Virus record (IMG/VR): IMGVR_UViG_2529292907_000022
From: a virus
Taxonomy: Duplodnaviria > Heunggongvirae > Uroviricota > Caudoviricetes
Direction: 5' to 3' (one strand)
Length of the DNA stretch: 5,226 nt
Position 1 is the first letter of the stretch. Every line of letters begins with the position of its first letter. The notes under the pieces are model-generated. The model saw nothing but the letters and a program-made list of their open reading frames with translations. It searched no databases and was not told where the DNA came from. Positions 1 through 5,226 of this stretch are shown one piece after another. A program made the position numbers and the translations under genes.

Positions 1-249
1 ATGCGTATTGAAATCTGCATAGCCAAAGAAAAAATGACTAAAATGCCAACCGGTGCTGTGGATGCGTTAAAGGAAGAATTAACCCGACGCATCAGTAAAC
101 GTTATGACGATGTAGAGGTGATCGTAAAAGCTACCAGCAACGATGGCCTTTCTGTTACGCGCACCGCCGATAAAGATTCAGCTAAAACTTTTGTTCAGGA
201 AACTCTGAAAGATACCTGGGAGTCTGCTGACGAGTGGTTTGTTCACTAA
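1..249 (+). CDS. DinI-like protein (DinI family SOS modulator), complete 82 aa
   Basis: ATG at 1, TAA at 247-249. Translation [82 protein letters not shown] has the DinI hallmarks as I remember E. coli DinI (MRIE..IAK start, RRI, LSV, ETWESADxWFV C-terminus) and the right length (~81 aa). Promoter and any LexA box would lie upstream of the window. Confidence 0.8.
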
Positions 250-317
250 TTAGCACGTAAAATCTGTAACGGCTGGAAATCATTCAATACTCGCACTATC
301 GAAAGTTCACCATCCAA

Positions 318-350
318 CCGCAGCACGTTCTTGCTTAAGACGTGCTGCGG
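318..350. terminator. GC-rich stem-loop between the convergent dinI-like gene and the invertase remnant; candidate terminator or structured element
   Basis: Perfect 10-bp inverted repeat ccgcagcacg (318-327) / cgtgctgcgg (341-350) around a 13-nt loop containing the palindrome cttaag. No convincing T-tract follows on either strand, so the terminator call is weak. Confidence 0.3.
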
Positions 351-379
351 CATAATCCCAATGATTACTCCCTGACAGG

Positions 380-715
380 GTTCGTAGGCCACTCAATATC
401 AGGTGCAGTTGATGTATCAACACGGTTCAGTAACACCCGATACTTTTTCTAGGCTTCCACCACCAGCACGACAAGATGCCGCATACAGTGAACCAGTCAG
501 TCCAGTTTTCAGACAACCAGTGCGTCACCTTTTTGAAGGCGCTTTAAAGCACGTTTTAATCCAGGTCGGCCTGTCCTTGTTCCGCTTAATTTATCTTCAA
601 ATATTTGTTCATATCCTGCACAAACAAGAGCGTTTCGTTGCAGATCTGTATTCTGGTCATTTGTTGATACCCTTACATAGCCAATCAGCACGCTGAATCT
701 CCCGTCCAAAAGCAC
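380..715 (-). pseudogene. Din-family serine recombinase / DNA invertase (Gin/Pin/Cin/Hin-like), disrupted remnant
   Basis: Minus-strand ORF 509-715 encodes (M)LLDGRFSVLIGYVRVSTNDQNTDLQRNALVCAGYEQIFEDKLSGTRTGRPGLKRALKRLQKGDALVV, which matches the N-terminus of Gin/Pin-type invertases including the catalytic-serine motif YVRVSTNDQ. The likely true start is the in-frame GTG at 689-691 (VLIGYVRV = canonical MLIGYVRV), preceded by gggag. The same frame continues *KLD*LVHCMRHLVVLVVEA*KKY...: TGA at 509-511 where the conserved Trp of VVWKLDRLGRS is expected, TGA at 497-499 where Arg is expected, TAG at 449-451, and further stops. Recognisable similarity fades by about position 400. The C-terminal helix-turn-helix domain cannot fit before the dinI-like stop at 249. 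Confidence 0.8.
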
Positions 716-745
716 AAATCATGCCATGCAGGCCAGAAACCGCCA

Positions 746-771
746 TTATCTAAAACCTCGGTTTACAGGAA
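746..771. other. Left crossover site for the invertase (26-bp gix/pix/cix-like)
   Basis: ttatctaaaacctcggtttacaggaa: two imperfect inverted half-sites around a central tc (758-759). It differs by one base from the Mu gix sequence as I recall it (TTATCCAAAACCTCGGTTTACAGGAA). It is an inverted match (22/26, 12-bp core identical) to the site at 3743-3768 and lies about 30 bp upstream of the invertase start. Confidence 0.8.
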
Positions 772-1953
772 ACGGTAAATCAGGCTTCTGGCGCATTACA
801 GAAAAAACAGAACGGCGCAGATATTCCAGGAAAAGATACCTTCATCAAAAATATTGGGGCCTGCCGCGCATATAGCGCATGGCTGAATATTGGTGGCGAT
901 AGTCAGGTCTGGACAACCGCGCAATTTATTTCGTGGCTGGAGAGTCAGGGAGCATTTAACCATCCTTACTGGATGTGCAAAGGCTCATGGACTTATGCAA
1001 ATAATAAGGTCATTACAGATACAGGTTGCGGAAATATTTGTCTTGCAGGTGCTGTGGTGGAAGTTATTGGCACTCGCGGCGCAATGACCATACGCGTTAC
1101 CACGCCGAGCACGTCCAGCGGTGGCGGAATTACTAACGCTCAATTCACTTATATTAATCATGGTGATGCTTATGCTCCTGGCTGGCGACGAGACTACAAC
1201 ACGAAAAATCAACAACCTGCATTTGCTTTAGGGCAAACAGGAAGCACTGTCGGAAATGATAAAGCTGTTGGCTGGAACTGGAATAGCGGGGTCTATAACG
1301 CAAACATTGGTGGCGCATCGACATTAATCCTCCACTTCAATATGAATACGGGGAGCTGCCCTGCTGTACAGTTCCGCGTGAATTACAGGAACGGCGGTAT
1401 TTTTTATCGTTCAGCCCGTGATGGTTATGGTTTTGAAGCCGACTGGTCCGAATTTTACACCACCACCAGAAAACCTTCAGCAGGAGATGTTGGTGCACTG
1501 CCGTTATCTGGTGGTCAACTGAATGGTGCACTGGGTATCGGAACATCCAGTGCTCTTGGCGGTAATTCGATTGTATTGGGTGATAATGACACGGGCTTTA
1601 AACAAAATGGCGATGGTAATCTGGACGTTTATGCTAATAACGTCCATGTTATGCGCTTTGTTTCCGGCGGCATTCAAAGTAATAAAACCATAAATATTAC
1701 AGGGCGTGTTAACCCCTCGGATTACGGTAACTTTGATTCCCGTTATGTGAAAGATGTTCGACTTGGTTCACAGCAATATTATGGAGTGAACAACTGGCAA
1801 ACATGGAATTTCCAGTGCCCTTCAGGTCATGTATTGTCTGGTATTAATGTTCAGGATACAGGGTCTAACTCTGCCGATAATATAGCGGGCGTTTATTACA
1901 GACCCGTTCAAAAGTATATAAATGGCACCTGGTATAATGTAGCGAGCGTTTAA
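754..1953 (+). CDS. Silent alternative tail-fibre C-terminal (receptor-binding) cassette, Sv'-like; promoterless, starts inside the crossover site
   Basis: Frame 1 is open from 754 to TAA at 1951-1953 with no start codon until 973: [79 protein letters not shown]... It shares a near-identical core ([48 protein letters not shown]) and the C-terminal motif INGTWYN with the expressed fibre tip. Inversion at the central dinucleotides would fuse it in frame to the constant part: ...AAVIEYLGL + QETVNQ... Confidence 0.8.
1360..1436 (+). repeat. Internal inverted repeat, copy A (77 bp, perfect) within the silent Sv' cassette
   Basis: cctgctgtacagttccgcgtgaattacaggaacggcggtattttttatcgttcagcccgtgatggttatggttttga is the exact reverse complement of 3327-3403. 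Flanking sequence stays similar with mostly synonymous differences. Confidence 0.8.
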
Positions 1954-1954
1954 T

Positions 1955-2483
1955 ATGATGCACTTAAAGAACATAAAAGCGGGTAATGCTAAAACACTGG
2001 AACAGTATGAGTTAACAAAGAAACACGGAGTTATCTGGCTTTACTCTGAGGACGGAAAAAACTGGTATGAGGAAGTGAAAAACTTTCAGCCAGACACCAT
2101 AAAGATTGTTTACGATGAAAATAATATTATTGTCGCCATCACCAGAGATGCCTCCACGCTTAATCCCGAAGGTTTTTAGCGTCGTCGAGGTTCCCGATAT
2201 AACGGCCAATCGTCGGACCGATGATTCCGGTAAGTGGATGTTTAAGGATGGAGCTGTGGTTAAACGGATTTATACGGCAGACGAACAGCAACAACAGGCC
2301 GAATCACAAAAGGCCGCATTGCTTTCCGAAGCTGAATCAGTCATCCAGCCGCTGGAACGCGCTGTCAGGTTGAATATGGCAACAGACGAGGAACGCACAC
2401 GACTGGAAGCATGGGAACGCTACAGTGTTCTGGTCAGCCGTGTGGATACGGCAAATCCTGAATGGACACAAAAGCCTGAATAA
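1955..2483 (+). pseudogene. Tail fibre assembly chaperone Tfa' (Mu U'-like), split by a +1 frameshift at a T5 run
   Basis: ATG at 1955 overlaps the Sv' stop (taATATGATG). The N-terminal frame [74 protein letters not shown] stops at TAG 2177-2179. The protein continues in the +1 frame as [32 protein letters not shown]...PEWTQKPE to TAA 2481-2483, colinear with the minus-strand paralogue ([18 protein letters not shown]). The break is at ttttt 2173-2177; T4 would restore the frame. Confidence 0.7.
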
Positions 2484-2488
2484 AAATT

Positions 2489-2508
2489 AAGGCCCGCTAT
2501 CGGGCCTT
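2489..2508. terminator. Hairpin at the centre of the invertible segment between the convergent tfa genes; likely intrinsic terminator, best on the minus strand
   Basis: aaggcccg-ctat-cgggcctt: perfect 8-bp stem, 4-nt loop. It lies 5 nt after the tfa' stop (2481-2483) and 3 nt after the tfa stop (2512-2514). On the minus strand the stem is followed by aattttta; the plus-strand tail (gtctcatt) is weaker. Confidence 0.5.
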
Positions 2509-2511
2509 GTC

Positions 2512-3044
2512 TCATTCAGGTTGTTCGGGAAATGTTACTGGCAGGCTGGAGGTGTCTGTAGATTCGACTTTCTGCGCATAGAGCATCCACCCGGTTAATT
2601 TTTGTTTATTCTCGTCGGAAATGATGCCCAGCCGTAGCTGTGAGTCCCATAGCTGGGTTTTATCCCTGACAAGTTGCAACAGGCTTTGCTTTTCATTCTC
2701 TGCCTGCTGCCTCTGTTCCTCCTCGGTATAAGTTCGCTTTATCACTGCGCCATCTTTGAACATCCATTTACCCGAAATATCAGCACGGCGATTTGCTGTA
2801 ATATCAGGTAATTCAACGACGCTTGCGCCTTCCGGATTAATTGCTGAAACATCCTTTTCAATACAAATAATAACGCCGTTATGGTCATAGGCCATTTTCA
2901 ATGTGTCTGGCCGGAAATTCTTTTGTTCCTCATACCAGTTTTTCCATCATCTGAATAAAGCCATTTGATGTTAAATTGCTTTGTTAGCTGGTATTGCTCT
3001 TTTGTTTTAGGATTGCCAGCAGTAATGTTTTTTAAGTGCATCAT
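2512..3044 (-). pseudogene. Tail fibre assembly chaperone Tfa (Mu U-like) for the expressed fibre, split by a -1 frameshift at an A5 run
   Basis: Minus-strand ATG at 3044-3042, 2 nt after the fibre stop. The N-terminal frame [35 protein letters not shown] runs into junk and a TGA at 2898-2900. The rest, (W)[50 protein letters not shown]...FPEQPE, is in another frame (ORF 2512-2901). The break is at ggaaaaactgg (plus-strand ttttt 2939-2943); the intact paralogue at 2053-2063 has ggaaaaaactgg (A6). Confidence 0.7.
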
Positions 3045-3046
3045 GA

Positions 3047-5226
3047 TTAAATACTCCCCGCGTTATACCACGTCCCATTAATGCAATACTGAATTGGCCT
3101 TGCCTGAGTTGTATCAATTAATTCATCACGGTTTCCGTTAACTGAACCCGTAACGACATAACCTGACCTGTCAGACCAGCCGGGACCATTCCATGTCCGA
3201 ACAGATGACAGACCGCCAAGGCGAATACCTGTAATAAACCTTGAGTTACATTCTGCCTGCGTGTATGCACCAACATCTCCCGCAGAGGGTTTGCGGGTCG
3301 TGGTGTAAAACTCTGACCAGTCAGCCTCAAAACCATAACCATCACGGGCTGAACGATAAAAAATACCGCCGTTCCTGTAATTCACGCGGAACTGTACAGC
3401 AGGACAACTTCCTTCTCCCATATAAAAATGAATAATTAACGTTGATGCACCACTAATAGTTGCGTTATAAGCTCCGCTACTCCAGTTCCATCCAACTGCT
3501 TTATCATTCGCAACGGTGCTTCCTGTTTTCCCTAAGGCAAACGCACCAACATGACTTGCTTTTAATGTGATATCGGAGGAACCATCAAAAGCCACATTGC
3601 TTATTTTCCTGGCAGTTTTTAATTTTGCAGCTGTAGAAGCATTGCCGGATAGTTCACCAGAAAGGCCACTGCTGAATGTTTGTCGATTAGTCCAGGTATT
3701 CGCTGTACTGAGTAACGGTATTTTCTCCCCTCTTGTGCCGAGTTCTCGTAAACCGAGGTATTCGATAACGGCAGCAACGGTCGATTTCGCAAGAATATCC
3801 CGCCCGACTTTTGTCAGGGTTGCCAGGCTGGCGACATCATTCCCCGTAAAATACGGAAACTTGCCTGCCGCAGTAGTAAGTCCGGCCAGCGCCGTCAGGG
3901 TGGCATCTTTCGGTTGCTTACCCGCAAGCGCGTTAGTCATGGTGGTCGCAAAATTCGGGTCGTTGCCCAGCGCCGCAGCCAACTCGTTCAGCGTATTCAG
4001 TGCATCAGGTGACGAATCTACAAGGGCGGCAATCGCAGCCATAACGAAAGCCGTGCTTGCGATTTGGGTATTATTCGTTCCCTGTCGCGCAGTTGGCGTT
4101 GTTGGCGTTCCGGTCAGTGCAGGACTATTTAAGGGCGCTTTCTTGTTCGTTTCACCCATTACCGCCTTAACCGCTTTTGGCGTTGCCGCCAGTGACTCGG
4201 AAGTGCTGTTGGTCGCACTGCTGAGCTGTACTATCACCTTTTTCGTCGTGCTCGCATCCTCCAGCGCCACGGCGGATGCAATATCCTCTGCCCGTTTTGC
4301 TGCTGTCTCGGCGCGCGTTGCCGCGGATTCAGCAGCAACTTTGCTCTGAGATGCAGCCGTCGCACTGCCTGCCGCCTCTGATGCTTTCGTTGTTGCTGTC
4401 GTGGCACTACCTTTCGCTGCTGACGCTTGTCTGGTCGCCTCATCTTTTGAAGCAGACGCAGATGATGCCGATGACGCCGCTGAACTGGCTGACGATGCGG
4501 CTGCCGCCTTAGAGGAAGCAGCATTGTCTGCTGAAGTCTTTGCATTTGTTTCAGAGGTTTTTGCTGCAGAAGCAGACCTCGCTGCTGCAGTGGCTTGCTC
4601 AGTGGCTTTGCCAGCCTTCGTGTGGCTGTCGAAGCGGATGATGCGGCGCTTTCTGCCGATTTTCCGGCGGCGGTGGCACTGGCTGAGGCCTGCCCCGGCA
4701 CTTGTTGACGCGGCACTGGCAGATAATGCAGCCGCTGTTTTGAACCTGCCGCAGCTGAGGCGCTCTGTCCCGCTGCTGTTTCAGAAGACTTAGCGTTCGT
4801 CTCGGACGTTTTTGCCGCCTTCGCGGAATTTCCTGCCGCCGTTGCCGAGGAAGCTGCACTACTGGCACTTGATGATGCATTCGTTTCTGAAGATTTCGCT
4901 GCCTCTTTTGAGGCCGCCGCACCCCGTGCCGAGGTGGCAGCTTCTGACGCCTTCGTGGTCGCTGTGGATGCAGAAGTGGCTGCCGATTTTTGTGATGCTG
5001 CGGCATTCGTTTCTGACGTTTTCGCGGCACTGGCGCTGGTAGCTGCCGCGCTTTTTGATGACTCTGCAGCAGCAGCACTTTTTGCTGCTTCACGGGTCTT
5101 TGTCGATGCCGTTCCTGCGCTGGAAGACGCTGACTGAGCCGACGACGCGGCCTGTCCGGCTGACGTGCTGGCTGCACGTGCTGAGCCTGCAGCATCAGTC
5201 GCATGAGTTGCCGCCTCGCTGGCTGA
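3047..5226 (-). CDS. Side tail fibre protein (lambdoid Stf-like shaft with Mu S-like invertible C-terminus); 5' end outside window; frame disrupted around 4620-4745
   Basis: Minus-strand ORF 3047-4270 ends ...[12 protein letters not shown] with stop at 3049-3047. Its frame stays open upstream and carries the Stf-like stretch [41 protein letters not shown]...[31 protein letters not shown]. From 5226 down to about 4742 a different frame carries the repeat shaft ([26 protein letters not shown] and similar). The right crossover site lies inside the coding sequence at ...[19 protein letters not shown]. Confidence 0.85.
3327..3403 (-). repeat. Internal inverted repeat, copy B (77 bp, perfect) within the expressed fibre tip
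   Basis: Reverse complement of 3327-3403 equals 1360-1436 exactly. Both copies encode the shared core ...[28 protein letters not shown]... Confidence 0.8.
3743..3768. other. Right crossover site (26 bp), inverted relative to the left site, inside the fibre coding sequence
   Basis: ttctcgtaaaccgaggtattcgataa compared with the reverse complement of the left site ttcctgtaaaccgaggttttagataa: 22/26 identical, 12-bp core gtaaaccgaggt identical. It sits at the constant/variable boundary of the fibre (VIEYLGL). Confidence 0.8.
4280..5226 (-). repeat. Ala/Ser/Thr-rich low-complexity repeat region of the fibre shaft (degenerate [12 protein letters not shown]-type repeats)
   Basis: Hand translation gives runs such as [99 protein letters not shown]-rich GCN-codon composition leaves long spurious open frames on both strands. 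Confidence 0.7.

Follow-up and report, generated by a model that had tools for sequence, protein, structure and literature searches.

A Mu-type invertible tail-fibre cassette in a lambdoid prophage of Escherichia coli DEC6B, with two tips that appear to have swapped their outer ends at a shared repeat

The stretch of DNA analysed in this study (IMG/VR virus record IMGVR_UViG_2529292907_000022; 5,226 nucleotides, referred to as the window) comprises the final 5,226 bases of contig AIFW01000027.1 in assembly GCA_000249615.2, and the host of the prophage is Escherichia coli DEC6B. The locus is an ordinary invertible tail-fibre cassette of the Mu/P1 type in a lambdoid E. coli prophage. It holds two alternative fibre tips, one expressed and one silent in the orientation sequenced; the product of the silent tip is named "bv' protein [Escherichia coli DEC6B]" in one source. 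Within the cassette, which is of the Mu G type and marks the tail-fibre end of the prophage, the two tips appear to have swapped their outer ends by recombination at a 280-base repeat that both contain. We give a probability of about 70% to this reading as a whole, cassette and swap together.

The invertible segment is bounded by two 26-bp crossover sites of the gix/cix type, which lie on opposite strands. The invertase-proximal site (746-771, plus strand; TTATCTAAAACC TC GGTTTACAGGAA) has no mismatch and belongs to a 30-nucleotide (nt) inverted repeat. The second site (3743-3768, minus strand; TTATCGAATACC TC GGTTTACGAGAA) has two mismatches. The pattern search that returned these two matches was expected to return 0.00 by chance, and no further crossover sites were found in the window, either with this search at up to three mismatches or with a search for the central motif. 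Measured from centre to centre of the two sites, the segment is 2,997 bp long. The reading frames are open through both sites: the first encodes ..LGLQE.. within ..NLGLQETV.. of the silent tip, the second ..YLGLRE.. within ..YLGLRELG.. at the junction of the constant and the variable part. This bears out the crossover point from which the original prediction had counted the lengths of the tips.

The constant part lies outside the segment on the minus strand (3756-5226). It is rich in Ala and Ser, belongs to a lambdoid side tail fibre (Stf; Pfam Phage_fiber_2, E 2.9e-15), is 97% identical to Stf of strain NCTC86 and runs past the window edge, which is the end of the contig. At the crossover site it is fused in frame to one of two alternative 3' ends, each of which is then followed by its own tail-fibre assembly (tfa) gene; the two tfa genes are convergent.

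The expressed tip (236-237 amino acids (aa) from the crossover, in a minus-strand frame ending at 3047) begins with a proximal part, here called A (3546-3755; RELGTRGEK...KASHVG), which is contiguous with the Stf constant part and 97% identical to NCTC86. It is followed by a core (copy 2, 3266-3545) and by a knob of the Mu S' type, the last 72 aa, which with its stop codon occupies 3047-3265. The tfa gene cognate to this tip (2512-3044, minus strand; Pfam Caudo_TAP, E 3.7e-32) is similar to Mu U'. The silent tip is an open frame of 399 aa on the plus strand (754-1953). Its proximal part, Sv'prox (residues 1-155; 754-1217), corresponds to the proximal part of the Mu S' variable region and leads into core copy 1 (residues 156-248; 1218-1497; weak match to Pfam gp37_C). 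Then come a Gly-rich stem insert of 79 aa, an optional module present in the silent tip only (residues 249-327; 1498-1734; weakly similar to Pfam gp37_trimer and the distal fibre gp37 of S16, 6F45), and a knob of variant D2 with the stop codon (residues 328-399; 1735-1953), which matches the Mu S C-terminal domain. The tfa gene cognate to the silent tip (1955-2483, plus strand; Caudo_TAP, E 1.6e-31) is similar to Mu U. In the sequenced orientation the fibre reads constant Stf, A, core and Mu S'-type knob, followed by the Mu U'-like assembly gene; after inversion it would read constant Stf, Sv'prox, core, Gly-rich stem and P2 H-type knob, followed by the Mu U-like assembly gene.

The core common to both tips comprises 93 aa with 89% identity (BLASTP, E 2e-57). 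At the DNA level its two copies are the arms of an internal inverted repeat of 280 nt, 1218-1497 and 3266-3545, with 84% identity. The lengths of about 400 and 236 aa in the original prediction, its shared central core and its extra Gly-rich insert in the silent tip all hold up.

The origin of the modules was traced with the solved fibre chains and with related loci. Residues 1-249 of the silent tip match residues 169-417 of the Mu S' chain 8JU3 (the G(-) fibre) with near-identity, after which the silent tip departs from it. The DNA of window 501-1497, which spans Sv'prox, is 94.5% identical to Mu, and Sv'prox is identical at 441/442 nt to the contig L023 described below. Residues 70-237 of the expressed tip match residues 321-488 of 8JU3 (E 5.8e-102) with one substitution in the knob; this knob is 99% identical to the Mu G(-) fibre S' and identical at 217/219 nt to L023. 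Neither tip is colinear with the full Mu S' chain, and neither can be classed as a Mu S'. Instead, judged by the matches to the solved chains (8JU3, and 5YVQ for Mu S), each tip holds one half of a Mu S', one the proximal part with the core and the other the core with the knob. The insert and knob that make up the remainder of the silent tip (151 aa) share 86% identity with the C-terminal end of the P2-type gpH; the silent knob also resembles the knob of Mu S, the G(+) fibre, and its protein sequence is identical to the corresponding part of the silent tip of NCTC86.

The point at which the halves were exchanged can be located by comparison with L023, a 2.5-kb E. coli contig from short reads (GCA_028862515.1). 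L023 contains the same modules with flanks that are 98.5-99.8% identical, yet the block between the cores is oppositely oriented. In L023, U' lies downstream of a complete S'-type gene (Sv'prox-core-S' knob), and a convergent U follows a gene that ends in core, stem and P2-type knob. The inner block of the window aligns with L023 in inverted orientation without a break, at 97% identity. Position by position in the core, the plus-strand copy equals the S'-type core of L023 at positions 1-219 (219/219) and is of the NCTC86 type at positions 220-280 (61/61), whereas the minus-strand copy is of the NCTC86/A type at positions 1-142 (141/142) and equals the S'-type core of L023 at positions 143-280 (138/138). 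Between the two copies there is no difference at positions 143-219 (window 1360-1436 and 3327-3403); this run of 77 nt is the longest identical one, and there are many differences on both sides of it. Since the parental types switch across this run in both copies, the exchange point falls inside it, and on these comparisons the two tips are best described as reciprocal recombinants.

The simplest explanation is a single inversion by homologous recombination between the core copies, which would invert the stem, both knobs and both tfa genes at once. The parental layout would then have been one tip with A, core, stem and P2-type knob and another that was a complete Mu S'. Such an un-swapped layout with two cores is present in a complete genome, fS58a, where it belongs to a P2-like prophage with an intact invertase. 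We infer that a single intramolecular event made the swap. A crossover combined with a conversion tract was also considered and dropped; the S'-type core of L023 matches both copies across the 77-nt run, so that a plain crossover suffices. The core itself is a shuffled module that served here as a recombination joint, not a designed scaffold.

Several findings weigh against this reconstruction. The recombinant layout rests on one draft assembly, the exact proteins of the silent and the expressed tip are on record on AIFW01000027.1 only, and no complete E. coli genome covers at least 80% of the silent gene. L023 stops 60 nt into its second core, so that this copy is unreadable across the exchange interval. 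The cores of fS58a share an identical run of only 21 nt, which means that the 77-nt run itself needed an earlier conversion event. Finally, the common genes that combine A, core and S' knob (L017-type) have their junction elsewhere, at core positions 224-232. Such recombinants therefore also arise and spread independently, and not always by an intramolecular event.

The first of these points raises the possibility that the swapped layout is an assembly artefact, produced by a crossover within the 77-nt run or by merging of a mixed population, and that the real cassette of DEC6B is parental as in L023 and fS58a. Both proteins occur on a single draft contig, the assembly has demonstrable errors in the form of homopolymer indels, including one in aspS, and the switch of parental types falls in the sole stretch where the copies are identical, which is also where a misjoin would fall. 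However, the identical run is just 77 nt long with many differences on its flanks. The strain collection that includes DEC6B was presumably sequenced by 454, and reads of a few hundred bases would span such a run, which counts against an artefact. The contig is continuous across both cores and all flanks, homopolymer errors are unlike misjoins in kind, and recombinants at the core exist independently in 313 complete genomes. We therefore judge an artefact to be unlikely.

Alternatively, the tips could stem from two independent recombination events, each with another prophage of the cell, i. e. from intermolecular mosaic evolution and not from one inversion inside the cassette. A genome has cores, knobs and tfa genes of this family in several of its prophages (up to 5-8 places), and the different junction of the L017-type genes speaks for repeated independent recombination at the core. 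Yet both junctions of the window lie within the same 77-nt interval, the two window copies together make up exactly the two parental copies with nothing gained or lost, and the inner block corresponds to L023 as a single inverted piece (97%). One inversion explains the shared interval as well as the intact parental content, whereas two independent events would have to coincide. This route, too, seems unlikely to us.

The inverted core pair could in principle be a second switch that needs no invertase and acts by homologous recombination across the 77-nt run. An inner flip in combination with the invertase flip would give four fibres per cassette instead of two, and the layouts of DEC6B and of L023/fS58a would be two states of one switch and not a frozen evolutionary accident. 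A recurrent inner flip is possible but unsupported, and we regard it as rather improbable.

In the original prediction the two tips were taken to be a common scaffold with two structurally different distal receptor-binding domains, which diverge completely until the last ~10 residues and share only a terminal INGTWYN motif. The shared core and the different ends of this picture are real, and the ends are of the Mu S' and the P2 H type with different Tfa partners. However, the last ~72-75 aa of the two tips align with 35% identity (BLASTP, E 3e-8). Both match one solved domain, the C-terminal domain of Mu S (5YVQ, residues ~425-503), the silent tip with E 1.2e-18 and the expressed tip with E 8.6e-4. 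An alignment of 22 sequences shows a conserved skeleton of the knob that is wider than INGTWYN, with S329, R336, L337, G358, R383, P384, Q386 and I389-N395 invariant. Both tips have the skeleton of ~70 aa (S-R...RLG...RP.Q..INGTWYN) and the cognate tfa gene that are typical of the Mu S, S' and P2 H knobs. Moreover, the proximal parts upstream of the core are also entirely different between the tips, and the core is a module with many partners that here served as the joint of an exchange of distal halves, not a fixed scaffold. Two distal types are thus present in the sense of different known knob types (Mu S' and P2 gpH), but these belong to one family and are not different domains. We consider the scaffold picture as a whole quite improbable; on the alignments, the tips differ by their proximal part, by the optional stem insert and by the variant of one knob family. 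A structure prediction of the silent tip as a monomer with AlphaFold2 (from the 22-sequence alignment) was too poor to use (mean predicted local distance difference test score (pLDDT) 36.5, predicted template modelling score (pTM) 0.18), as expected for the monomer of an intertwined trimer.

That the invertase itself flipped the inner block at a weak quasi crossover site in the core, as part of a small multi-site system like Min of p15B, is highly improbable: the 77-nt run does contain GAATTACAGGAA (window 1366-1391, core positions 149-174), which agrees with a true half-site at 10/12 positions, and multi-site tail-fibre inversion is known from a P2-like prophage with three inverted repeats and four variants (PMC4272514), but the other half is poor, the total of 16/24 is equalled at 17 other positions and surpassed with a score of 17 at four more besides the true sites, the pattern searches gave the two canonical sites only, and the likeness of GAATTACAGGAA to a half-site is probably due to chance.

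By comparison with related loci, the tips are readily described as mosaics of standard modules, namely a proximal part, the core, an optional stem insert and a knob with its cognate tfa. All four combinations of A or Sv'prox with either the knob directly or the stem and knob occur, and there are at least five knob variants. The combination Sv'prox-core-S' knob is the Mu S' form and has several hundred partial matches. Of the 5426 complete E. coli genomes, 313 contain A-core-S' knob, the expressed form of the window; P2-like prophages whose invertase is intact are one example. A-core-stem-knob is the structure of both NCTC86 tips and of fS58a. Sv'prox-core-stem-knob, the silent form, occurs with the same layout and other knobs in P0001 and P0003. 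P0005 and P0006 have the core and the knob without the stem, with similar knobs. Both NCTC86 tips, P0001 and P0003 contain the stem insert, which the expressed tip, Mu S', P0005 and P0006 lack. In Sv of P7/P1, an A-like part, Sv'prox, the core and the S' knob are strung into one gene, and a start similar to A is found in both Sv and Sv' of P7/P1. A single genome can have members of the core, knob and tfa families at as many as 5-8 places, and the contexts are Mu-like, P2-like, P1-like and lambdoid. Among species-representative genomes there were only distant relatives of the window (in Yokenella, Citrobacter, Xenorhabdus and Salmonella) and no close copy.

The core ends in a joint motif, KPSAGDVGA (window 1471-1500 and 3263-3292). 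At the same boundary in fibres that have no core, KPTAAEVGAL and KPTAADVGAL precede the Gly-rich stem (in the Mu-like prophage L026 and the protein P0006). Motifs of the KPSAGDVGA type look like a general splice point for fibre modules.

Two further loci show how the modules are combined elsewhere. In NCTC86 (L001 3432-4394 and 5488-6700) the tips have A, core and stem in common, with 100% identity between the core copies, and the difference is confined to the knob of ~70 aa; the internal inverted repeat there is much longer than that of the window. A P2-like prophage of strain WAT (L016 5466-6035) apparently combines Sv'prox, core and most of the S' knob with the end of a P2-type knob. This record has many frameshifts, and the apparent hybrid knob may be an assembly problem.

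Next to the cassette lies the 5' remnant of a serine invertase of the Gin/Pin family (509-691, minus strand), which consists of 60 codons followed by TGA. Its match to the Pfam Resolvase N-terminal domain (E 4.6e-15) spans only positions 2-69 of the 145 positions of the profile, so that a complete adjacent invertase is not present. The first 183 nt of the stump are 96% identical to Mu gin, and because the homology to gin stops at ~501, the truncation is real. The stump retains 68 nt that match the annotated enhancer in P7 cin (cin nt 19-86) and are 97% identical to Mu gin. It is joined to the C-terminal fragment of a tfa gene (294-462, minus strand) with 88% identity to the tfa pseudogene of NCTC86 and EC958. 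Equivalents of this remnant are labelled "tail fiber assembly protein, incomplete" in NCTC86, WS1933D, ET76, CT30 and EC958, and the invertase is equally truncated in all five. The junction between the stump and the tfa fragment (window 294-715) is near-identical in NCTC86, WS1933D, ET76 and CT30; in prophage Phi4 of EC958 the identity over window 311-766 is 100%. Since several strains have the same junction, the deletion must be old and widespread among lambdoid E. coli prophages.

With a stump of 60 codons as the adjacent invertase, switching would need an enzyme supplied in trans, namely an invertase of the Gin/Pin family encoded by another prophage of the cell. A precedent is the nearly identical cassette of EC958 Phi4, whose crossover sites are of the same kind and whose invertase is also truncated. 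About half of the PacBio reads of this prophage were inverted, and the authors ascribed the inversion to a trans-acting invertase (Forde et al. 2014, PMC4134206). By analogy, the cassette of DEC6B would still flip. The four half-sites of the window are those published for EC958 Phi4 (PMC4134206), with the inner halves exchanged, as expected if the two records show one kind of segment in its two opposite orientations.

The alternation of host range that the original prediction had suggested is supported with respect to the device, i. e. by the in-frame fusion, the cognate tfa genes and the homology to Mu, P1/P7 and EC958. From the literature, the two Mu fibres recognise different parts of the lipopolysaccharide (LPS) core, and the N-terminal domain of Mu Tfa binds the fibre tip, with Tfa staying on the virion. 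Different specificities of the two tips of the window are plausible by this homology, and they may bind different LPS-core receptors. Each tfa of the window matches the tfa that is found downstream of the same knob type at other loci. Between the two Tfa proteins of the window, identity is 69% over the N-terminal 95 aa and 40% over the remainder.

The cassette belongs to a long-known family of invertible tail-fibre segments: the G segment of Mu, the C segment of P1/P7, the P segment of e14, the B segment of S. boydii and those of EC958 Phi1, Phi2 and Phi4. It shares with these the crossover sites, the in-frame fusion and the cognate tfa genes; a complete adjacent invertase is what it does not have. 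Homology to the segments of Mu, P1/P7 and EC958 Phi4 extends over the whole cassette, and window 1899-3545 is colinear with Mu, P1, P7 and D108 at ~92% identity (Mu, 89%). The segment of Mu (S/U, S'/U' and Gin) has the same type of 26-bp site, which encodes LGL(Q/R)E at the constant/variable junction, and likewise convergent tfa genes. Core and knob of the expressed tip as well as the proximal part and core of the silent tip are near-identical to Mu S', and the invertase stump is 96% identical to gin. Unlike Mu, where the constant part is Sc, the window has a lambdoid Stf as the constant part. Mu contains a single core copy, in S' only, whereas the window contains two in inverted orientation. 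Moreover, the S' knob and its tfa have moved to the other tip, and the invertase is truncated.

EC958 Phi4 (Forde et al. 2014, PMC4134206) shares with the window the lambdoid context, the truncated invertase with the tfa remnant, the half-sites and an Stf constant part of 96% identity. It differs in that its segment is 3,106 bp long instead of 2,997 bp and that the inner half-sites are in the opposite state. In EC958 Phi4 and in NCTC86, unlike in the window, both tips consist of A, core and stem with a long terminal inverted repeat, and the Mu S' proximal part is lacking. In the C segment of P1/P7 (Sv/U, Sv'/U' and Cin), too, the alternative tips begin with a shared portion in inverted repeat and then differ; the 5' end of the P1/P7 invertase gene contains the enhancer. 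In P1/P7, however, the shared repeat immediately adjoins the crossover sites and there is just one copy of the core, whereas the shared repeat of the window is internal, 460 nt and 210 nt from the sites.

The likeness to P2 gpH/gpG lies in the stem and knob of the silent tip (86% identical to the C-terminus of P2 H). Classical P2 is not known to have an invertible segment. The P2-like prophage of fS58a has the same modules and two cores; unlike the window it has an intact invertase, an un-swapped layout and the core run of 21 nt. In multi-site systems such as Min of p15B, the shufflons and the P2-like prophage with three repeats (Goldberg et al. 2014, PMC4272514), proximal and distal parts are likewise re-assorted by nested inversions, which gives more than two variants. 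These systems have several crossover sites for the recombinase, whereas the window has two and its nested exchange maps to plain homology. A system of the Min or shufflon type was rejected for the window, with two sites only and with the best internal candidate (16/24) within the background.

The locus thus represents known biology and reveals neither a new mechanism nor a new kind of system; what is new is the mosaic combination of the modules. Mildly new is also that both reciprocal products of a module exchange were kept in one cassette, that the exchange could be mapped to 77 nt and that the un-swapped layout exists in other strains. Tail-fibre tips decide which bacteria a phage, a tailocin or an engineered delivery particle can attack, and the locus is a clean natural example of how tips are made, in which a core of 93 aa lets proximal parts and sets of knob and chaperone recombine. 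The mapped joint may be useful for picking fusion points in the engineering of fibres of the Mu, P2 or lambda type.

Both tfa genes and the Stf constant part are interrupted by frameshifts in the record. In the plus-strand tfa, an extra T in the T-run at 2173-2177 (located by comparison with Mu and NCTC86) splits the frame. Without it the gene encodes an intact protein of 175 aa, 99% identical to the Tfa of NCTC86 that follows the same knob. The minus-strand tfa is one base short in a homopolymer run at ~2937-2944; with one base added it encodes an intact protein of 177 aa, whose identity to Mu U' and its relatives is 94-97% over the N-terminal 95 aa and 96-98% over the C-terminal part. The Stf constant part has three homopolymer indels, at ~4621, 4693 and 4738; once these are corrected, the frame reads through from 5226 to the stop at 3047. 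Hence both tfa genes and Stf are intact after correction. The five single-base indels in coding regions of the window are all changes of homopolymer length relative to close relatives, and the essential gene aspS on the same contig is likewise affected by a frameshift, T6 versus T7 relative to a reference of 99.9% identity (L019 7555). For these reasons the frameshifts are best read as errors of the draft assembly. Decay of the split tfa and Stf to pseudogenes was rejected on the same grounds. Apparent pseudogenes in an assembly with such systematic homopolymer errors are not to be trusted.

Between the convergent tfa genes lies a GC-rich, terminator-like hairpin with a stem of 8 bp (2489-2508). 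Folding of window 2470-2525 gave -25.7 kcal/mol (z = -6.5), and there is an A-run on one flank. In phage D108, terminators are annotated at the equivalent place. The hairpin is probably a bidirectional terminator that insulates the silent half of the cassette.

At the other end of the window, outside the cassette and at the edge of the prophage, is a DinI-like gene (1-249, plus strand; Pfam PF06183 DinI, E 1.1e-19), called as a gene of 82 aa on AIFW01000027.1. The prophage end adjoins yecD (L019 8756-9028), and a related strain has a truncated yecE (DUF72) together with another phage remnant at this place (L021 11723-12199). The integration site of the prophage seems to be yecE.

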